Counted from the stretch's first letter, positions 8,368 through 62,245 are shown. The stretch: DNA of 64,000 bases from Candidatus Gastranaerophilales bacterium (GCA_944322945.1 CALUQN010000010.1:2230-66229); one strand, 5' to 3'. Notes: generated from the sequence alone by a model not told the origin. A program made the numbers and translations.

Positions 8368-9141
8368 CTAGTCTGCAAGTTTTGTGATTAATATTGGTGC
8401 ATTGGTGTAAAAGTACGGCAGGGAATTCCCTGCATCGGTGTATCCTACCCAGATTACTCCTGGATAGCTTTGTTTGTTTATCTGTCGTAATTTTTCTTCT
8501 ACATTTGTAAATTTTGTTTTTGAAATTTTTAGGTTCGCAAGATTACTGATGTCACCGATATTTATTATCGTATAGTCTCCGTTTGTTATTCTGTGGTAAT
8601 TTGTTGCTTCTTCAATCGCTTTGTACACCCATTTTATCCTTCCGTTTCGTTTAAGGTTCGCCGGAATTTCCATTGTGTAAATTCCTATTTCTTTTGCGTG
8701 TTCTACAAGCGCATTGATTACTTTTTTGCCCTCATTTTTGTTATCTACTGTCAGGATTAGTCCAGATTTTAGCTTGTCTCCGTAAATGTATTTTTCATCG
8801 CCTTCCATGGCTGCTCTTATCGGGTAAAGTACTTTTTTCTTTAAAAACTTTGCAGTGTTTGGATATTTAAGCTTATTCAGCCCGGCATTTTTGTCGGCAA
8901 GTTCTATAAGGCTTTCAGGAATAATGTTTTTCATCCTCAGATTAAGAAGCATTCCGGCAACTGCTGCCACCGCAAGCAGACTTACAGTGATTCCGAGCGA
9001 ATTATTGTTCATTTCTTTCATTTTTTTTGTCGGATCTGTTTGAAACAAAAAAGGATTGCTAATCTCGACTTTTTTTTCACCTGTCTGAGAATTGCAGAAA
9101 CTTGTTGTGTATGTTTTGTAGGATACCGGACTAACTTGCAT
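8368..9141 (-). CDS. membrane-anchored hypothetical protein, possible degenerate AAA+ core
   Basis: 257 aa. TM helix LGITVSLLAVAAVAGMLLNL. KSGLILTVDNKNEGKKVINALVEHAKEIG and DYTIINIGDISNL align loosely to FtsH-type Walker A/B regions, with key residues replaced. Confidence 0.55.
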   Translation of the reverse strand: MQVSPVSYKTYTTSFCNSQTGEKKVEISNPFLFQTDPTKKMKEMNNNSLGITVSLLAVAAVAGMLLNLRMKNIIPESLIELADKNAGLNKLKYPNTAKFLKKKVLYPIRAAMEGDEKYIYGDKLKSGLILTVDNKNEGKKVINALVEHAKEIGIYTMEIPANLKRNGRIKWVYKAIEEATNYHRITNGDYTIINIGDISNLANLKISKTKFTNVEEKLRQINKQSYPGVIWVGYTDAGNSLPYFYTNAPILITKLAD

Positions 9142-9180: not shown

Positions 9181-9198
9181 ATTGTAAACTTTTGTATA
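9181..9198 (-). promoter_or_regulatory. HLR1-like direct repeat (1 mismatch)
   Basis: Minus strand reads TATACAAA-AG-TTTACAAT against the consensus (G/T)TTACA(T/A)(T/A)-N2-(G/T)TTACA(T/A)(T/A). Located between the divergent genes 8368..9141 and dfx. Confidence 0.4.
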
Positions 9199-12588: not shown

Positions 12589-14133
12589 ATGCAGTACAAA
12601 AAATCAACTTTAATTTTATTATCAGCATCTTTGCTTTTGTCTGCATTTAATGTTGTTTGTGCTGCAGTTCCGGATTATGAAGATATAAAGTTCAATGTAA
12701 GAACGGGTATTGATGACTTTAAGGACAATGTTGACGACGTAAAAGATAAAGTAGATGATTTTAAAGATGAGGTCGGAGATTTTAAAGAAGGCATTCACAT
12801 CAATATTCCAAACCCTCTTGAGCCTGACATGCGTAAGAAAGAAGCAAAACATAAACATCAGGTAGAAAAACAGGAGGCAAAGGAAGAATATGAGCGCAAA
12901 CGTCAGGAGATAAATCCTTCAGGTTTTATGACTGTGGAGGAGTATGAACAGCGTTCAAAGGCAGTTGATCATACGCAGGATGAAATTGAAATTCCCAAGC
13001 CGGAAAAAGAATCTGATATGAAATATGTTCCGCAGTATACCTATAAAATAGTTAAGTATAACAATCCGCCTGGAACTCCTGAACTTTCAATAAAAAAGAA
13101 ATTTTACACAATGAAGCACATGAATATGCAGGGAATTGCTTCTCCGGATTTTACTAAGCTTGTTTATCCCGTTGTGTATTACTACGCAAATGGGGCGTCT
13201 GTCGCGTGTGAGCTTTTTGTAATTCCGCTGGATGAAAGCGAAACCAATCTTAACAAGCTCATGAAAGCTAATGTAAAGAAAAGGCTTCCTGATCCGATTT
13301 TGTCTACAGACAGAACAATTGATAATGCCTTAACTTTTAGAACTCTTACACCTATTGATTTTTCTGTTGACGGTAATCTTCTTCTCGCAAAGGAAAAAAT
13401 CGGCAGCAGTGCAGACGGCATCTGGCAGACTAATGCTATTGTTTATCACTTTGACACAAAAATGTCTTATGATCTGGTAGAGGTGCGCGATGCTATTGTT
13501 TATTACTGGAAAGAGAATAAAAGCCTAAATCTTGAAGATAAGCGCTGGGATATTTATCCAATCGGGTTTGATATAAATAATCCGGATAGAGTCATTGTTC
13601 AGGCTTATGGATTTACCGGAGACACGCCCGTATTTTTGGGGACTTGGAGTATTGACAGCAAGGGCGAACAGTCTCGGCTTGAAACTTTTGTTAATGCGGA
13701 AAACAGAGTCAGTATGAACGGTTTTAAGCTAGTTCAGGACGGAGTTATAAAACCCAGTGTTTCTGCGGCTGAAGAAAAACAGCTCCAGCGTTTTGAAAGA
13801 GAAAAAGCAAAAGCAAAACGTGATGAAGATAAGGCTAAGCGTGATGCTTTGAAAGAAGAGTACAAAGCTAAAATTAAGGCTATGGACGAAAAGTATTACG
13901 AAGAGCAGCATAACTTTAACCTGCAGCAGCGTGTTAAGGGCTCGACTTCCGGCAATGACGCGGTTGAAATGTATGAACAGTTAAAAGCTGAAGAAATTAA
14001 AAAATACCTTGAAAAGCAGGAAAAATTAAATGCTAAAGAACAGCAGCGCATAGAAAAATTGCTCAATGAAGCTCAGAAATATCAGGATGCGGCTGATGCG
14101 GTTGAAGTTCCGGAGCCGAAGCTGAGTGAATAA
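12589..14133 (+). CDS. secreted hypothetical protein with acidic DDFKD repeats and a K/E-rich coiled-coil tail
   Basis: Signal peptide. GIDDFKDNVDDVKDKVDDFKDEVGDFKEG repeats. C-terminal EKAKAKRDEDKAKRDALKEEYKAK. Lies directly after the two-component genes. Confidence 0.65.
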   Translation: MQYKKSTLILLSASLLLSAFNVVCAAVPDYEDIKFNVRTGIDDFKDNVDDVKDKVDDFKDEVGDFKEGIHINIPNPLEPDMRKKEAKHKHQVEKQEAKEEYERKRQEINPSGFMTVEEYEQRSKAVDHTQDEIEIPKPEKESDMKYVPQYTYKIVKYNNPPGTPELSIKKKFYTMKHMNMQGIASPDFTKLVYPVVYYYANGASVACELFVIPLDESETNLNKLMKANVKKRLPDPILSTDRTIDNALTFRTLTPIDFSVDGNLLLAKEKIGSSADGIWQTNAIVYHFDTKMSYDLVEVRDAIVYYWKENKSLNLEDKRWDIYPIGFDINNPDRVIVQAYGFTGDTPVFLGTWSIDSKGEQSRLETFVNAENRVSMNGFKLVQDGVIKPSVSAAEEKQLQRFEREKAKAKRDEDKAKRDALKEEYKAKIKAMDEKYYEEQHNFNLQQRVKGSTSGNDAVEMYEQLKAEEIKKYLEKQEKLNAKEQQRIEKLLNEAQKYQDAADAVEVPEPKLSE

Positions 14134-14368
14134 GCTCCAGCTTTTTGGCGCGCGGCAGCTTTTTAATCCGGCATTCTTCTTTCATTGCATCAGATTTTGT
14201 CTGAAATTCTTTTGAGTAGACTATTTTGTTTGGTTTATGCACTCTTGTATATTTTGCGCCCTGTCCGCAGGCATGCGCGGCAAACCGTTTTTCAATATCA
14301 TCCGTGTAGCCGCAGTAGAGCTTGTCGTCTTCAGTCAAAAGTATGTAGACATAATAGTTTTTATCCAT
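14063..14368 (-). CDS. GIY-YIG nuclease-family protein (YhbQ-like)
   Basis: YYVYILLTEDDKLYCGYTDDIEKRFAAH...GAKYT signature. The 3' tail overlaps the convergent gene by 71 nt. Confidence 0.8.
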   Translation of the reverse strand: MDKNYYVYILLTEDDKLYCGYTDDIEKRFAAHACGQGAKYTRVHKPNKIVYSKEFQTKSDAMKEECRIKKLPRAKKLELIHSASAPELQPHQPHPDISELH

Positions 14369-14383
14369 ATTTTTATTCTAATC

Positions 14384-14410
14384 AAAAAGGACGGTTTAAA
14401 AACCGCCCTT
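14384..14410 (-). terminator. rho-independent terminator of the Cys-rich protein gene
   Basis: Minus strand: GGGCGGT-loop-ACCGTCC followed by TTTTT. Confidence 0.55.
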
Positions 14411-14455
14411 TAATGTATCTTTTCTTTATTTCTCTCAAATTACATCTGTTTTGTA

Positions 14456-14797
14456 TTAGCAGAAGGAAGAAAACCCGCCTGAAGAACCGCAGGAACCGCC
14501 AGTGCTGCATCCTGCCGATACTGCGCATCCGCCGGCGCTGATTGTTGCTACTGCTGATGAAAAATTGCTTAAAAATCCGCCTGCTGTTGAACTGCCGTCT
14601 GTGCAGTTTGCATAGCTTGCATAATCTATTGAAACCGGATTGCTTGTCGTAAATGTGTCGTAAGAATTCATTGCCAGATAATCAGATTTTTGACCCATAG
14701 GCATTAAAGCAAGTGATCCTGCTGTTTCTACCGTTTCTACAGGTTTATTAGCGTTGTTAACTCTTTCAGCTTGTGTTTGTCTTGTTGCTACGTTCAT
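14456..14797 (-). CDS. 113-aa protein with a Cys/Gly/Ser-rich C-terminus
   Basis: ATG at 14797 has AAGGAG 7 nt upstream. The C-terminus is ISAGGCAVSAGCSTGGSCGSSGGFSSFC. The gene has its own terminator. Confidence 0.6.
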   Translation of the reverse strand: MNVATRQTQAERVNNANKPVETVETAGSLALMPMGQKSDYLAMNSYDTFTTSNPVSIDYASYANCTDGSSTAGGFLSNFSSAVATISAGGCAVSAGCSTGGSCGSSGGFSSFC

Positions 14798-14883
14798 TAA
14801 CTGCTCCTTAATTGCTCTCGTGTTATTACTTACATATATATAAACTAATTTTCTTTTTCCCAATTTCAGCATGTATGTTTTTT

Positions 14884-14901
14884 GTTACATTTGTTTACAA
14901 A
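14884..14901 (+). promoter_or_regulatory. perfect HLR1 (RpaB-type) direct repeat
   Basis: GTTACATT-TG-TTTACAAA matches the consensus with no mismatch. Located in a divergent intergenic region. Confidence 0.6.
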
Positions 14902-14976: not shown

Positions 14977-15261
14977 ATGCGCATTAATCCTGTTATGAAT
15001 ACACAAGTTCATTTTCAAAGAAATAATAATGACAAGCAGCCGCAGCAGGCTTCCGCAATGAAGAATATTGCAAAGGCAGTAGTTGTGGTTCCGTTAATCA
15101 TGCCGGTTGTTGTTTCCTGTGACCATGACCCAATTGATATTGATATAGACAGAACACACGATATACATGTTAAAGATTCTGTTACTCATGACTCAAATCA
15201 TGACCATTATGAAACCAGAGCAATCAATTTTAACGATGCTTCTCTCGATATAGTCGGGTAA
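14977..15261 (+). CDS. small His/Asp-rich protein, possible lipoprotein
   Basis: RBS GAAAGAGG. Hydrophobic segment ending in the lipobox-like VVSC. The putative mature part CDHDPIDIDIDRTHDIHVKDSVTHDSNHDHYE is rich in His and Asp. Confidence 0.55.
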   Translation: MRINPVMNTQVHFQRNNNDKQPQQASAMKNIAKAVVVVPLIMPVVVSCDHDPIDIDIDRTHDIHVKDSVTHDSNHDHYETRAINFNDASLDIVG

Positions 15262-15346: not shown

Positions 15347-16018
15347 TTGATTAGGGGAGAGCTTTTGAAAAGGATAATATTTTTAATTGAATTTGTTTTT
15401 ATATTTGCATTGAGCACAATCGGTGTTTCAGCTGCTGATAATGTATTGAGTGCAGTAATACTTGAAGGGGTGGATAACGGATACAATATAACCCTCAAAA
15501 CAGATACTACTGCAAAAGTGAAAAAGGTGGTACAGGCTCCCGATAAAGTTACTCTGGTATTAAACGGGGTTAGTTCGGCACCGGAGGTGAATGTGTTTTA
15601 TAAAAATACACCGGATGCAAGCAGTCTCATTGTGGAAAACAGCAGCAGAAATGATGTGAAAGTTCATATAAAGGCTGATAATATTGCAAATTCAAATATA
15701 ATATTTGATTTGCCGGCATCTGCTCCTGTTTTCGTTACTGATTCCGCACAAAATGAAAATGTTGCATTTAACGTTTTTGCGGCAGGGTTAGTGATTGCTT
15801 TAATTGTGCTTATAAAGTCGGTTGCGACAGAAAAGCAGACAGACAAAACCATTGCTGAACGAGGTTTGAAAGATCGTGAACTTGAATTATACAGGAATTA
15901 TTCAAGAAATCTTAACAGTCCTGTAAGCATAAGTACCGCCGGTACAAAAGATTACGCGTCAAATGTTATGGATAGACGCAGAACAATACGCAGCATGCAG
16001 TCATTTGCGCGCAAATAG
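15347..16018 (+). CDS. hypothetical exported/membrane protein (AMIN-like beta domain?)
   Basis: Signal-like N-terminus (the true start may be TTG 15365, after GGGGAG). One C-proximal TM helix. The AMIN resemblance is weak. Confidence 0.55.
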   Translation: MIRGELLKRIIFLIEFVFIFALSTIGVSAADNVLSAVILEGVDNGYNITLKTDTTAKVKKVVQAPDKVTLVLNGVSSAPEVNVFYKNTPDASSLIVENSSRNDVKVHIKADNIANSNIIFDLPASAPVFVTDSAQNENVAFNVFAAGLVIALIVLIKSVATEKQTDKTIAERGLKDRELELYRNYSRNLNSPVSISTAGTKDYASNVMDRRRTIRSMQSFARK

Positions 16019-21318: not shown

Positions 21319-22323
21319 TTATATTTTGTAATATTTCAGTGTCTGATTAATTTCTTTCGGCGGTACCGTTGAGACTACACGTGCCACTGTACGAGCTTTG
21401 CCTGAGTCAAGATAATTGAAGCCGTATGGTGTTGTTACTTTTGCACGAAGTGCATATTTTACCGCATCATTTACAGGCAGCGTTTCGTTTAACTCCGTAA
21501 TTAGTCTATACATTGGCTGCGAGTAAACTTTATTGCCTATGCTGTTTTTAAAAACTGACGCCTTCAATATTTTTGCCGCTTCTTCTGCTGATACTTTTCT
21601 TGTCTCCATGCTGATGAAACCATCATTAAACATTGCTTCACTCAGCTTGTCGTTTCCTTGCCAATCCGTTAATATTGATGCGTTTTTGATTGTTTTTACT
21701 GTGTCGATATCGTATCCGTCATAAAGTTTGTTTACAATGAGTTTTCTTGCAAGAGGAGAAAATACATTTTTCCCGTAATATTTTAATTCAGAGGCTTGTC
21801 TGATCTCTTCTTCCGGAATATCTATTTCTGTTCTTCTTAGTTCCGGATATTTTTCGTCAATGTCAACATCCGGTGCGTAATTTATATCAACAAGCGGAGA
21901 ATCCAAATCTCTCGGCGCTATATCTGTATCAGGCATAAACCATTTGTTTTCGGAAAAAGTGTACCCTTTTGCTCTGTAAAATTTTCTGTCAACGGGATTG
22001 TAAAATTGTGTAACAATTGGTTCTAAGTCATCTTCATCGTAGCTGTCATATCCGCTCAAATCGTGTTCAAGAGAAATGTCAAAAAGTTCGTCGTCGCGGA
22101 AAATAGCTCTGCGGGCAGCGACGTCTTCCGGTGTTTCCTGCCTGAAATACGGCTTTTTCTTCTCGATGTATAATACGTCTTTTAACACAAACGGTATCGG
22201 ACAATTTTCATAATTCTGTTCATAGACATCCCTGTTTGCTGTTGTTTGTGTTTTAGGCTTTTTCGTTGAAGTGAAATAAGCTCTTTGGACAGGGCTGGTA
22301 TTTGTTATACGTTGAATTTGCAT
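21319..22323 (-). CDS. hypothetical protein
   Basis: 334-aa ORF. N-terminus MQIQRITNTSPVQRAYF. No recognised domain. Confidence 0.6.
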   Translation of the reverse strand: MQIQRITNTSPVQRAYFTSTKKPKTQTTANRDVYEQNYENCPIPFVLKDVLYIEKKKPYFRQETPEDVAARRAIFRDDELFDISLEHDLSGYDSYDEDDLEPIVTQFYNPVDRKFYRAKGYTFSENKWFMPDTDIAPRDLDSPLVDINYAPDVDIDEKYPELRRTEIDIPEEEIRQASELKYYGKNVFSPLARKLIVNKLYDGYDIDTVKTIKNASILTDWQGNDKLSEAMFNDGFISMETRKVSAEEAAKILKASVFKNSIGNKVYSQPMYRLITELNETLPVNDAVKYALRAKVTTPYGFNYLDSGKARTVARVVSTVPPKEINQTLKYYKI

Positions 22324-25237: not shown

Positions 25238-26785
25238 CTATAATGTAACTTTTTGTAACGACAAGAGCCGCTTGTTTTCCTCAATTAAAAACTCTTTGCC
25301 GGGTTTTATTTCAATAAAATCCCATGGGAGCGCTGCGTCAAATTCATAGTTGCTTAAAGCAAAAAAGTCTGCGTCTATGGTGTCCTTGGCACAAGATTTG
25401 AACGCCCCGATTTTGCCGCCTTTTTGGTAAACATCAATCAAAAAATCCGTGAGACTCTCGTCTCCGCGGGAGAGTACTGCCTGCCAATAATCCCATTTAA
25501 TGCTTGAAAAGTGTGCAGTAATACCAAGTTTGTGAAATTCTTTTTTCAGAAAGTTAACTTTATTTTCCAGACTTTTTGTTTGCTCTCTTCCGCACCACTG
25601 AAACGGGGTGTTTGCTTTTGGTACAAAACTGGAAAATCCAAATGATATATCAAACCCTTTATTCTCTTCCTTTAGTCGTTTGGCAAGCCGTAAAAGTTCT
25701 TCCAAGTCTTCATCGCATTCTGTCGGCAGCCCCAGCATACCATAGAATTTGACTCCTTTCAGCCCGTTTTCTCTACAAATTTTAACAGCTTCAAAAATTT
25801 GTTCTTCTGTTACATTTTTGTTTATAACCTTGCGCAGACGTTCACTGCCTGCTTCTATTGCAAGAGTTGTATTTTTTTGTCCTGCTGTTACAAGTGTTTT
25901 TATTATATCCGGCTTTACCGCGTCAATTCTAAGGGAAGAGAGGCTCATCTCAATTTTTTCACCGTTTTGTATTTTTTTGTAAATATATTCGCATATATCT
26001 CCAAAGTGAGGATGCGCACTGATTTGAGCGCCTAAAAGTGCTATTTTATTTGTTTTTGACAGTCCCAGTTCTATTACCTTAATAAGTTCGTCATAGGGCA
26101 TAAATCTGAGCGGCAGGTTTAAATAAGAAGCAAGGCAGAAACCGCAGCGGTTTGCGCAGCCTCTTGCAACTTCCACTATAAATGTGTTCTTGAAAAATGC
26201 GTCTTCGCTCAATATCGGAGTATATATACATTCTGTGAGCTTTTTTGTAAGTTTTTTTACTGACTTTTGCGGCTTGGAAGGTACATATATCCCGTCGACT
26301 TTTGAGAGCATTTCAAGAATTTCATTACGTGATTTATCTTTATTATCCTTACAAATTCTTGCTGCTTCAAGGTTTACGTCTTCTCCGTCCCCAATAACGA
26401 TAAAGTCAAAAAAGTTTTTGTACGGTTCAGGGTTTGCGCTCACTACAGGACCTCCGGCAAATATCAGCGGGCAATCCTCTTCTCTTTCGGTTGATTTCAG
26501 CGGAATTTTATATTTGTCAAGCATTGAAAATATCGTCAGAAAATCCATATCAAACGAAAAAGAAAATCCGATTACATCAACATCTTTGAATGAGTGCATT
26601 GTGTTTTTGGTGTCTGAAAATATCATTTCCGCATTGATATCACACATTTCATCAATTCCTTTGAATACCCACAAGAAACCGAGTGATGAAAGTGCAAAAG
26701 ATTTCGGACCCGGAAATGCCATCCACAAGGTGAAGTCAGCATTTTTGTCAGTTATTGGATTGTATAGATAGATATCTTTAGTCAT
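25238..26785 (-). CDS. B12-binding-domain radical SAM protein
   Basis: CANRCGFCLASY CxxxCxxC motif. N-terminal Rossmann-like B12-binding-type region (VIGFSFSF...FAGGP...VIGDGE). Confidence 0.85.
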   Translation of the reverse strand: MTKDIYLYNPITDKNADFTLWMAFPGPKSFALSSLGFLWVFKGIDEMCDINAEMIFSDTKNTMHSFKDVDVIGFSFSFDMDFLTIFSMLDKYKIPLKSTEREEDCPLIFAGGPVVSANPEPYKNFFDFIVIGDGEDVNLEAARICKDNKDKSRNEILEMLSKVDGIYVPSKPQKSVKKLTKKLTECIYTPILSEDAFFKNTFIVEVARGCANRCGFCLASYLNLPLRFMPYDELIKVIELGLSKTNKIALLGAQISAHPHFGDICEYIYKKIQNGEKIEMSLSSLRIDAVKPDIIKTLVTAGQKNTTLAIEAGSERLRKVINKNVTEEQIFEAVKICRENGLKGVKFYGMLGLPTECDEDLEELLRLAKRLKEENKGFDISFGFSSFVPKANTPFQWCGREQTKSLENKVNFLKKEFHKLGITAHFSSIKWDYWQAVLSRGDESLTDFLIDVYQKGGKIGAFKSCAKDTIDADFFALSNYEFDAALPWDFIEIKPGKEFLIEENKRLLSLQKVTL

Positions 26786-27923: not shown

Positions 27924-27941
27924 ATTGTAACAAATTGTAAA
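27924..27941 (-). promoter_or_regulatory. perfect HLR1 (RpaB-type) direct repeat
   Basis: Minus strand reads TTTACAAT-TT-GTTACAAT. The site ends 8 nt before a plus-strand TATAAT (27950..27955). Confidence 0.6.
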
Positions 27942-40354: not shown

Positions 40355-42238
40355 ATGGAAATTAATAAAATTACAGCTAACAAAATTGCTAAGAAGCAAT
40401 ATAACAGTTGTAAATCAGAAAAAAATACATCAGAAATTCAGTATGAAAACAGTGATAAATTAATGAGGGAGCTTGATAAAATGGCAAATATAAACAATAT
40501 AACATTCAAAGGCGACAACGCGCTTAACCTGACAACAGAAGAACTACAAAAGCGTACAAATAAAGATTACCTTATTACAAAAAAAATGTTGAAGGCAGAT
40601 GCTCCGGAGTATCTTGAACTCGAAGAAGGCGACAAAAAGGCTCTAAAACACCTTGTTAAAGCCGCGTATATCCTCGAAAAAATAAATATGCAGCTTGATA
40701 ATCCGCACAATCTGGAATTTCAGGAGTATCTTGAAAATGAGATAAAAAAAGGCAGCAAGGATGCTGAAATGACAAAAATCCTGTTTGACGCACAAAAAGG
40801 TATAAATGCGCTCGATACAATGTCAAACAAGATAAATCTTGCTAAGGGGCATAAAGATTTGCCAGGCAAGGGATTTTATCCTGAGGACCTGTCAAAAAAA
40901 GAATTTCATCAAATATTAATCAAGATGTTAAATGAAGGCAAAGACGATGAGGTTAAAAAGATTTTGACACAACGCACCGTTGTGGAGCGTAACGGAGATG
41001 AGCTTGTCGGTATCGACTACGTTGATAAATTCAAAGAGGATTTTGCTCAAATGGCTGATGAAATTGACAAAGCCGCAAACTATTCAACGAATAAAGAGTT
41101 TACAAAATATCTCGTCCTTCAGTCACAGGCTCTCAGAATGGCAAATCCGATGCTGGATGCTTATGCGGATAAGCAGTGGGCAACTTTGCAGGATACCCCG
41201 CTTGAATTCACCATAACAAGAGAAAATTATGAAGATGAGATGACCGGAACAATTGTTGAAAACAAAGAATTAAGCAAAATGCTTGAAGAACGTAATATTT
41301 CTCCTATCCCGAAAGATATGCTTGGATGCAGGGTTGGTATTGTAAATAAAAAGGGAACAGATGCTTTAATGGCTATAAAAAAATACCTCCCTATCCTTGC
41401 GCAGAATATGCCTTATAAGGATGAATACGAGCAAAATATTTCAACAACAGGCGACGCAAAACAAACTATGGTTGATGTTGATTTGGTTGCGGTTACCGGT
41501 GATGTCGGAGCTTACAGAGGAGGAATTACACTTGCTGAAAACCTTCCTAATGACGACAAATTATCCCTCACAATAGGCGGCGGCAGACGTAATGTTTACC
41601 ATAGACAAATCCGCTTTATCAGTGATATGAACAAATTGCAGGAACGCCTTGATGCAATTCTAGACAAAGACCAGCACAAGTACTACCTTGACGAAGCAGA
41701 TCACTGGTTTACAATTGGTCACGAAAACGCACACTCACTTGGCCCGAACAAAGGTAATGAAAAACTCGGCAAATACCGTAATATTATTGAAGAAAACAAA
41801 GCAGATATGGGTTCTCTGGCGTTTGTAGATTTGCTGACAGAGCTTGGAATGTACACGGACGAACAGCGGAAGCAGATTATTGTGACGACTATTGCTGATA
41901 ATTTCTTAAAATCAAAACCTGAAATGAGTCAGGCTCACCGTGTCAGAACTGTTATGCAGAATAAGTACTTTGCAGAACGCGGCGCTTATGAGATTACTCC
42001 GGAGGGTAAAATCCACGTAAATATTGACAAAGTCGTCCCTATAGCTAAAGAGATGTTATCTGAAATTGTCAGAATACAAATTGACGGTGACTTTGACAAA
42101 GCTGAAAAATACGTAAAAGATAATTTTGTTTGGACTGACAATATGGAACTCATCGCTCAAAAACTCCAAAAAGTAAACAAAACGTTAAACGGAAGAACAG
42201 AATCTGAATTAGCTGAAAAATTGCTCAAGGAGGAATAA
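40355..42238 (+). CDS. M49 (dipeptidyl-peptidase III)-like zinc hydrolase family protein
   Basis: HENAHSLGP (HExxH) followed by IIEENKADMGSL, which resembles the second EExxAE/D motif of DPP III-like proteins. ATG 40355 with AAGGAG upstream. Confidence 0.6.
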   Translation: MEINKITANKIAKKQYNSCKSEKNTSEIQYENSDKLMRELDKMANINNITFKGDNALNLTTEELQKRTNKDYLITKKMLKADAPEYLELEEGDKKALKHLVKAAYILEKINMQLDNPHNLEFQEYLENEIKKGSKDAEMTKILFDAQKGINALDTMSNKINLAKGHKDLPGKGFYPEDLSKKEFHQILIKMLNEGKDDEVKKILTQRTVVERNGDELVGIDYVDKFKEDFAQMADEIDKAANYSTNKEFTKYLVLQSQALRMANPMLDAYADKQWATLQDTPLEFTITRENYEDEMTGTIVENKELSKMLEERNISPIPKDMLGCRVGIVNKKGTDALMAIKKYLPILAQNMPYKDEYEQNISTTGDAKQTMVDVDLVAVTGDVGAYRGGITLAENLPNDDKLSLTIGGGRRNVYHRQIRFISDMNKLQERLDAILDKDQHKYYLDEADHWFTIGHENAHSLGPNKGNEKLGKYRNIIEENKADMGSLAFVDLLTELGMYTDEQRKQIIVTTIADNFLKSKPEMSQAHRVRTVMQNKYFAERGAYEITPEGKIHVNIDKVVPIAKEMLSEIVRIQIDGDFDKAEKYVKDNFVWTDNMELIAQKLQKVNKTLNGRTESELAEKLLKEE

Positions 42239-61492: not shown

Positions 61493-62245
61493 ATGACAGA
61501 AAATGCAGAAATGACTACTACTGAAAATGAAGATCGTCAAAGAATTCTTTTAGCCGATGATGAAGCTTCAATCAGACGTATTCTAGAGACCAGATTAAAA
61601 ATGGCCGGTTATGATGTGTACACAGCTGCTGACGGTGAAGAAGCCGTTAATGCATTTAATAAATATAATCCTGATTTGGTTGTTTTGGATGTTATGATGC
61701 CAAAGATGGACGGTTATGGTGTAACAAGAGAAATCAGACGTACTGCTGATGTTCCGATTATTATCCTGACTGCATTGGGTGATGTTTCTGAAAGAATTAC
61801 AGGACTTGAGCTTGGTGCTGACGATTATGTAATTAAACCATTTTCTCCGAAAGAATTAGAAGCTCGTGTCAAGGCTGTATTAAGAAGAACAAATAACAGA
61901 GAAACGATTACACCGAGCGGCAAAGTTACCAAAAATGTAATAACAACAGGTAATATCAAAATTGATACAGCAAGACGTCAGGTATACAGAAAAAATGACA
62001 GAATTCGTTTAACCGGTATGGAATTTAGTCTTTTGGAACTGCTGGTTAATAATTCAGGGCAGGCATTTTCAAGAAACGAAATTCTCCAGCATGTTTGGGC
62101 TTATCCGCCTGATCACAGAATTGATACGCGTGTTGTTGACGTTCACATTTCAAGATTACGTTCAAAATTGGAATCAGACCCGGCAAATCCTGAATTAATC
62201 TTGACAGCTCGCGGTATTGGATATATGTTCCAGAGAATAAACTAA
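61493..62245 (+). CDS. rpaB: OmpR-family response regulator, RpaB/Ycf27 orthologue
   Basis: DDEASIRRILETRL...TAADGEEA...DLVVLDVMMPKMDGYGV...VPIIILTALGDVSERITGLELGADDYVIKPFSPKELEARV is nearly collinear with cyanobacterial RpaB as I recall it. Confidence 0.8.
   Translation: MTENAEMTTTENEDRQRILLADDEASIRRILETRLKMAGYDVYTAADGEEAVNAFNKYNPDLVVLDVMMPKMDGYGVTREIRRTADVPIIILTALGDVSERITGLELGADDYVIKPFSPKELEARVKAVLRRTNNRETITPSGKVTKNVITTGNIKIDTARRQVYRKNDRIRLTGMEFSLLELLVNNSGQAFSRNEILQHVWAYPPDHRIDTRVVDVHISRLRSKLESDPANPELILTARGIGYMFQRIN

Follow-up and report, generated by a model that had tools for sequence, protein, structure and literature searches.

The gene at positions 14456-14797 (minus strand) of a 64,000-nucleotide stretch of DNA from Candidatus Gastranaerophilales bacterium (GCA_944322945.1 CALUQN010000010.1:2230-66229), here called the window, encodes an orphan protein of 113 amino acids and is a genuine gene under selection, not a chance open reading frame (ORF). 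Block-by-block conservation, seen in about 70 species, extends to the promoter, the operator and the terminator. The product, an acidic protein of about 11 kDa, is predicted by structure modelling to be intrinsically disordered. Our preferred reading, which is tentative and to which we assign a probability of about 0.35, is that of an adaptor or scaffold that works through its motifs and bears two or three redox-active thiols at the C-terminus, and whose gene would be activated by RpaB. An initial annotation of the same gene had described its arrangement and its tail and had interpreted it as the possible precursor of a ribosomally synthesised and post-translationally modified peptide (RiPP) or as a metal-binding protein; the descriptive part of that account stood, while the reading as a RiPP precursor did not.

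Gene, protein and C-terminal cysteines

The elements of the transcription unit and its presumed regulator are as follows:

14456-14797, minus strand: coding sequence of the 113-residue orphan protein, stop codon at 14456-14458, supported by translation, homologues and the ratio of non-synonymous to synonymous substitution rates (dN/dS)
14804-14809, minus strand: Shine-Dalgarno sequence AAGGAG, 6 nt 5' of the ATG, read directly from the sequence
14830-14845, minus strand: promoter block TTTATATAwATGTAAG, -10 element and probable transcription start, conserved across 71 loci
14863-14873, minus strand: conserved block CATGCTGAAAT in the -35 region, beginning some 10 nt past HLR1 and shared by 71 loci, possibly a sigma-factor site or a second regulator site
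14884-14901, plus strand (antisense to the gene): HLR1, the RpaB operator, GTTACATTTGTTTACAAA, at -104 to -87 from the ATG
14378-14411, minus strand: intrinsic terminator, an 11-bp hairpin followed by a U-run, between the gene and a GIY-YIG gene
61493-62245, plus strand: RpaB orthologue, the presumed regulator (NCBIfam NF045944, 361 bits against a cut-off of 330)

The translated sequence ends in ISAGGCAVSAGCSTGGSCGSSGGFSSFC, identical to the Cys/Gly/Ser-rich tail quoted in the initial annotation, and the strong ribosome-binding site claimed there was found 6 nt ahead of the start codon. The gene was likewise rightly called monocistronic, and it has its own promoter and its own terminator. That it is real follows from dN/dS values of 0.02-0.19 in 13 pairwise comparisons, with purifying selection acting over the whole length and the Gly/Ser/Cys tail (omega 0.03-0.15) constrained like the rest of the protein. 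A longer ORF of 138 codons starting at 14872, which appears as 137-139 amino acids in some public gene calls, is an over-extension, because it would cross the conserved -10 block and because all homologues begin with MN. The plus-strand ORF 14185-14541 is unsupported, since conservation follows the minus-strand frame of the 113-residue gene. Among the three closest species, a small sample, the synonymous rate is 0-0.08 in codons 1-20 (14738-14797) and 0.3-2.3 elsewhere in the gene, which may reflect a constraint on translation initiation.

AlphaFold2, run with an alignment of 70 sequences, gave a mean predicted local distance difference test (pLDDT) score of 53 and a lone helix at residues 76-88. 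Family members have isoelectric points of 4.0-5.0, are without a hydrophobic segment (maximum KD19 1.4) and are rich in Ser (22%), Gly (12%), Ala (9%), Thr (8%) and Phe (7%), with 3.0% Cys. At about 45% overall identity, the residues E21, E24-A30, Y46, D47, P54, Y62, F75, F79 and A82 do not vary among 70 species, and conservation is gathered in the following blocks:

M1-N2-x-I4: N-terminus (N2 97%, I4 90%)
K-P-x-E-[ST]-[VI]-E-T-A-G-S-L-A: second block, including ETAGSLA at residues 24-30 of the target
Y-D-x-F-x-x-S-N-P-F-x-V-D-Y-x-x-Y: third block, including YD.F..SNP at residues 46-54
G-G-F-L-x-x-F-S-x-A-V-x-T-L: amphipathic helix, in the target GGFLSNFSSAVAT at residues 73-85
S-C-x(2-4)-G-G-F-[ST]-S-[VF]-C: C-terminal block, in the target SC..GGFSSFC at residues 102-113, preceded by a low-complexity Gly/Ser/Ala/Phe stretch of variable length from residue 87 to C103

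Divergent homologues of three genera (designated g17, g23 and g26) retain SNPF..IDYSQY and a ..F[SV]..C terminus and carry five to eight tandem copies of E[TS]AGx[LIV]A, which partly replace the helix block; a repeat-bearing homologue is also predicted to be disordered (pLDDT 48). As ETAGSLA is invariant where single and tandemly amplified elsewhere, it behaves like a docking or assembly motif and not like part of a globular fold. Its likeness to the GSL-type cargo-loading peptides of encapsulins led nowhere, as encapsulin (PF04454) is not present in the genome from which the window comes. [ST]NPF was also considered as a proteome-enriched motif and discarded, its 21 matches in this genome being about the number estimated by hand from residue frequencies.

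The initial annotation had made its interpretation depend on a cysteine pattern shared by homologues, and such a pattern exists. C103 is retained in 94% of members, and the terminal Cys in 86-91%. Among 217 unique family members, 197 (91%) have Cys as the last residue and 211 (97%) at least two tail cysteines, three being the commonest number. Between the last two cysteines, the distance is mostly 7-11 residues. The target has five cysteines, of which only C103 and C113, and loosely one of C91 and C97, are features of the family.

Two or three semi-conserved cysteines on a flexible tail would also suit a thiol-based metal binder or buffer resembling a metallochaperone or metallothionein, possibly acting with a His/Asp-rich putative lipoprotein (14977-15261) that is the divergent neighbour in this genus, and ferritin and desulfoferrodoxin genes lie near the locus. 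We consider such a role distinctly unlikely. The Cys content is only 3%, the spacing of the last two cysteines is unlike the CxC, CxxC or CC clusters of metallothioneins, none of which is conserved, five of the 217 members have a single tail Cys, and it is mainly outside the Cys tail that the protein is conserved; the lipoprotein gene, moreover, occurs in just three of 70 loci.

In the adaptor or scaffold reading, the short linear motifs (ETAGSLA, YDxFxxSNPFxVDYxxY and the helix GGFLxxFSxAVxTL) would dock onto one or more conserved putative partners, while the flexible Gly/Ser tail would present its two or three thiols, in the arrangement (S/D)C...SC...GGF[ST]S[VF]C-COOH, so that disulfides could form reversibly, or thiol-metal bridges be made, inside one molecule or from one molecule to another. 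Assembly or the binding of partners might then shift with the redox state of this strict anaerobe, and RpaB, itself redox-responsive, would activate the gene from HLR1, which lies about 60 nt ahead of the deduced transcription start. That the protein docks onto partners, that its thiols react in this way, that RpaB activates the gene and that the protein is cytoplasmic is what we infer.

Promoter, HLR1 operator and regulon

HLR1 is a direct repeat of the form (G/T)TTACA(T/A)(T/A)-N2, and the consensus used here was taken from PMC6525291. The site at 14884-14901 matches it in 18 of 18 positions, so that the HLR1-containing promoter of the initial annotation is confirmed. In 67 of 70 loci, an HLR1-like repeat of at least 16/18 stands before the start codon, at -81 to -108 and always antisense, and in 71 HLR1-anchored loci the order is the same: HLR1, 10 nt, CATGCTGAAAT, about 20 nt, TTTATATAwATGTAAG. 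The site is also kept, in the same arrangement, before four divergent homologue loci that lie in another neighbourhood, downstream of nadC; therefore, the operator belongs to the target gene and not to its divergent neighbour. Relative to the start deduced from the -10 block, the centre of HLR1 lies at about -63, which falls inside the range of -66 to -45 from which RpaB activates in Synechocystis (PMC6525291). With an HLR1 repeat upstream and an RpaB orthologue present, the gene can be assigned to the RpaB/HLR1 regulon, and from the position of the site RpaB probably activates its transcription.

At the other end, the terminator hairpin folds at -17.3 kcal/mol (z = -3.7 against shuffled sequences), and 67 of 68 related loci have an equivalent hairpin and T-run after the stop codon, their stems showing compensatory changes; the terminator reported by the initial annotation is thereby supported. 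It separates the gene from the GIY-YIG gene on the same strand. A simple consensus scan for terminators gave no call at this hairpin, and the sole Rfam match was a sub-threshold one to STnc430 over the terminator (25 bits against 47).

The genome of origin contains 100 HLR1-like sites (at least 17/18), 82 of them intergenic; those in the window include 14884-14901, 9181-9198 and 27924-27941. Of 49 sites in antisense orientation, 31 lie 80-120 nt before a start codon. About 34 genes stand behind HLR1 sites in a list built on a crude ORF call, and they encode mostly orphan low-complexity or surface proteins, besides a type IV pilin-like protein, Pmp-like giant proteins, desulfoferrodoxin and a rubrerythrin-like protein. 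HLR1-like sites also occur about 100 nt upstream of the genes for a LysM protein and an EF-hand-pair protein, neither of which has an obvious signal peptide on inspection by eye, which hints at Sec-independent export. Several HLR1 sites are located directly upstream of sigma-28-type promoters, TAAA-N15/16-GCCGATAA. Such promoters, just downstream of an HLR1-like site, precede at least five genes of an orphan family of 13 paralogues (411-865 amino acids) that start with MGMAASQAR[LF]L and end in ..KN[IM]E[KR]xF. The likely reader of the sigma-28-type promoters is a group-3 sigma factor resembling SigB, SigF and FliA, which scores below every equivalog cut-off. The genes concerned are given here by contig (C with a number) of the same genome assembly:

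C4:122069-122719: LysM protein
C1:114639-115190: EF-hand-pair protein
C8:7820-8287, plus strand: 155-residue orphan low-complexity protein rich in Gly, Phe, Met, Pro and Cys, HLR1 site upstream
C3:109401-111380, C2:12206-13723, C4:69536-71143, C19:25656-27440 and C1:16499-18256: members of the MGMAASQAR[LF]L family
C3:41283-42146, plus strand: group-3 sigma factor

The 155-residue protein and all six of its retrieved homologues end in GG(G)F(x)[FW]C-COOH; it is unrelated to the target family and is the only other protein of the genome with a GGF..C terminus. The possibility that the MGMAASQAR[LF]L proteins are divergent flagellins was rejected, as hhalign gave a probability of 0.2% against flagellins of related genomes and no PDB match was obtained.

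As a separate observation, many orphan proteins begin with M-x-[IVM]-x-x-[VI], often with [VI]-[SQ]-F-x-G within the first 10-50 residues (for example VSFAGR, VSFRGE, VSFQGF and TVSFTARK), a pattern that resembles a recurring lineage-specific N-terminal module or signal. Examples are encoded in the window at 8368-9141, 14977-15261, 21319-22323 and 40355-42238, and elsewhere in the genome at C4:95931, C6:50676, C14:53521 and C15:8492.

Several points weigh against the adaptor or scaffold with a redox-active tail. The transcription start, on which the activating position of HLR1 depends, is the one deduced from the -10 block. The regulon is broad and mostly composed of orphan genes, so that membership is not specific to redox biology. 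Six of the 217 family members, one of them apparently truncated or chimeric, have fewer than two tail cysteines, and the Cys pair is therefore not strictly required; its C-x6-10-C spacing also differs from the classical redox motif CxxC. Finally, the Ser/Gly/Phe-rich composition, the strong ribosome-binding site and terminator, and the amplification of a motif would equally fit an abundant structural protein.

Distribution, neighbouring genes and competing roles

Homologues were recovered as 24 sequences in a word-indexed search, as 28 representative clusters in an exhaustive phmmer search and as 436 clusters in a profile search; the clusters measure 104-175 amino acids, and none of the 436 bears a name beyond 'hypothetical protein'. 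A scan of genome collections yielded 68 loci, all from metagenome-assembled gut genomes of Gastranaerophilales/Melainabacteria. In whole-genome searches, the gene was present in single copy in 109 of 201 Gastranaerophilales genomes, clustered by genus and all within one GTDB family, and in 91 of 301 sampled Cyanobacteriota genomes, confined to the same GTDB family and found nowhere else in that sample; only 15 of 133 sampled genera carry it. On these searches, the family is lineage-restricted, to the Gastranaerophilaceae. The protein matched no Pfam, NCBIfam or PDB family, permissive thresholds included. Its newness, which the initial annotation had left as an option, is that of a family without described relatives or fold; no new mechanism is demonstrated. 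A 75-residue ORF of the same genome (C22:596-823) was rejected as a paralogue, the common KPVESV and SNPF being too weak a resemblance.

The gene has the same neighbours in 68 of 70 fetched loci:

15347-16018, plus strand: divergent upstream gene for a bitopic protein with signal peptide, AMIN-like periplasmic domain, transmembrane helix and cytoplasmic tail
14063-14368, minus strand: downstream gene for a small GIY-YIG protein (PF01541, E = 1.9e-18), median gap 84 nt

The AMIN-like assignment of the upstream product was made by eye only, and the Pfam AMIN family gives no match. By position only, this protein is a candidate partner of the target. It was rejected as a strictly co-occurring one, because its N-terminal domain occurs throughout the order (193 of 201 genomes) and the gene is not adjacent in genera g17 and g23. 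The protein evolves fast (about 34% identity), and it has a conserved cytoplasmic tail of about 55 residues (IKEREkxLYrNf..P..Y.L..K.Y..HVLKGETxR). In flagellated genera and other families, matches to the N-terminal domain lie in open frames of 354-485 amino acids.

This fixed setting bears on the RiPP reading, according to which a long conserved leader would precede a Gly/Ser/Cys core of the microcin B17, lanthipeptide or ranthipeptide kind, with the maturase encoded elsewhere in the genome. The composition of the tail does resemble azole or thioether cores, and its low-complexity stretch varies in length as a core might. As the initial annotation had noted, no maturase gene adjoins the target, and the nearest radical SAM (S-adenosylmethionine) gene, at 25238-26785, is about 10.4 kb away; ribosomal protein genes lie between the two, and an orthologue of the radical SAM gene carries PF19864 and PF04055. 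In the genome assembly, which is 98.6% complete, YcaO (PF02624) gave no match although the controls responded, and none was called in the flanks of related loci; peptidase C39 (PF03412) had no match in this genome; and the best LanC-like hit (PF05147), a 628-residue protein on contig C15, scored 16.2 bits against a cut-off of 23.2. The genome does encode one SPASM radical SAM protein:

C15:30640-31710, minus strand: only SPASM radical SAM protein of the genome, among lpxD, lpxC/fabZ, rfaE-like and ZIP transporter genes

An enzyme of this kind, expected next to the precursor of a sactipeptide or ranthipeptide, here lies on a different contig from the target in what is a lipid A/heptose neighbourhood, and no small Cys-rich ORF stands beside it; it might conceivably act in trans. 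In none of about 70 loci does a maturase, transporter or immunity gene occur within 10 kb of the target gene. A patchy distribution is usual for biosynthetic clusters. The target has fixed neighbours, and its presence follows genus within one family, which is not the picture of a cluster for a thiazole/oxazole-modified microcin (TOMM). The last ten residues are conserved rather than variable, and purifying selection on the tail is strong. Single-copy inheritance, fixed synteny, a conserved C-terminus and the lack of every tested maturase class together make a RiPP precursor highly improbable, and a role as precursor of a peptide antibiotic is very unlikely.

An exported structural or matrix protein is the alternative suggested by the host's flagellar genes. 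Most Gastranaerophilales keep partial flagellar gene sets (Soo 2014, PMC4040986), and the genome of origin retains the following cluster:

C21:8194-14694: fliE, fliF, fliG-like, fliH and flhA

Flagellin was not found in this genome, and FlgM (PF04316) gave four weak matches there, none above the cut-off and none at the target gene. A FHIPEP gene scoring about 730 bits is present in all 201 genomes of the order, and among the matches listed, several flagellated genomes show a second copy of about 870 bits. The partial set hence looks like a distinct paralogous system and not like a decaying flagellum. The idea that the target is a late flagellar substrate or FlgM of a flagellated cell was abandoned, because its own genome lacks flagellin and because the family and flagellin for the most part exclude each other in distribution; with the retained export gate found, it was revised to a substrate of a flagellum-derived apparatus. 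The protein would leave the cell without Sec through this type III apparatus and be cross-linked outside through its C-terminal Cys, alone or with other low-complexity proteins ending in GGF..C.

Consistent with such an exit are the HLR1-like sites of the LysM and EF-hand genes and those ahead of the sigma-28-type promoters of the 13-member orphan family, the monocistronic layout with strong ribosome-binding site and terminator, which recalls flagellin or pilin genes, and the composition, motif amplification and shared C-terminal motif. The conserved MNxI N-terminus, followed by an invariant motif about 20 residues on, is also reminiscent of the bipartite N-terminal signal of early flagellar substrates (Bryant et al. 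2022, PMC8983047). Type III signals, however, have no sequence test, the invariant motif differs from the F-x-x-x-hydrophobic motif recognised at the gate, and the target gene never adjoins flagellar-type genes. The export gate is found throughout the order, but the protein family only in part of a single GTDB family; an anoxic gut is a doubtful place for disulfide cross-linking; and the orphan MGMAASQ proteins are without homology to flagellin. On balance we regard export as rather unlikely.

A more specific version, which we think improbable, joins the target and the 155-residue protein as lineage-specific low-complexity proteins ending in GGF-x-[VFW]-Cys-COOH that would be co-regulated through RpaB/HLR1 with the genes behind sigma-28-type promoters and would serve as substrates or building blocks of the type III apparatus. 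ETAGSLA would then be a docking signal and the terminal Cys a point of cross-linking or attachment, and flagellin-less Gastranaerophilaceae would keep the apparatus for a purpose other than swimming.

The same inventory could accommodate a small, disordered, FlgM-like anti-sigma factor that inhibits the group-3 (FliA/SigF-like) sigma factor and is removed by export: canonical FlgM was not found in the genome, the sigma factor, sigma-28-type promoters and type III export gate are present, and the protein is small, acidic and disordered. We give this hardly any credence, as the target shows no similarity to PF04316, its Gly/Ser/Cys tail and the amplification of ETAG repeats are unlike a helical sigma-binding domain, its own promoter is not of the sigma-28 type, and the family is absent from most flagellated genera.

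Significance and comparison with known systems

Gastranaerophilales are uncultured gut relatives of cyanobacteria that are common in non-industrialised human populations and in animals, and most of their lineage-specific genes are unannotated. The target is among the most tightly conserved HLR1/RpaB operator targets in a non-photosynthetic lineage and could show what the ancient redox regulator RpaB controls outside photosynthesis. It also offers a compact case of a bacterial disordered protein in which conservation resides in short linear motifs, one of them tandemly amplifiable, and of a conserved C-terminal Cys motif common to two unrelated families. A link to the export apparatus, if true, would help to explain why 'non-flagellated' Melainabacteria retain a flagellar-type machine.

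With McbA, the microcin B17 precursor, and other TOMM precursors, the target shares a Gly/Ser/Cys-rich C-terminus behind a longer N-terminal part and a small gene whose product is not enzyme-like. It differs from them in that its genome has no YcaO cyclodehydratase and no dehydrogenase, exporter or immunity genes, in an 85-residue 'leader' with several invariant motifs, in a conserved extreme C-terminus, and in that carrier genomes have one copy each at a constant position. With FlgM and the early substrates of flagellar type III export (PMC8983047), it shares the lack of a Sec signal, a chain predicted to be disordered, a conserved hydrophobic residue near the N-terminus with a conserved motif about 20 residues downstream, and a host with a flagellar-type export gate; the target, in contrast, has no PF04316 match, carries ETAGSLA and not F-x-x-x-hydrophobic, and is unlinked to flagellar genes.

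Its promoter resembles the RpaB-activated promoters of Synechocystis and Synechococcus (Riediger et al. 2019, PMC6525291) in the perfect direct repeat, in the RpaB equivalog encoded in the same window and in a site centred about 60 nt upstream of the deduced start, an activating position. It departs from them in its non-photosynthetic host, in having an orphan protein as target and in a site that is always antisense to the gene.

For the protein as adaptor or scaffold, the nearest functional analogy in our comparison is CP12, which is not a relative. CP12 is a conditionally disordered redox switch of cyanobacteria and plastids that uses Cys pairs and scaffolds GAPDH and PRK. The target has no sequence similarity to it and no N-terminal Cys pair, the CP12 core AWD(A/T)VEEL does not occur in the family alignment, no Pfam match was obtained at E <= 1, and the host is without a Calvin cycle. 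The target is like CP12 in its small size, its acidity and its predicted disorder, and in that most of its conservation falls in short motifs. Both have two C-terminal cysteines about 8-10 residues apart, which in the target would be a putative switch, and both belong to the cyanobacterial lineage and are linked to redox-responsive regulation, in the target through the presumed action of RpaB.

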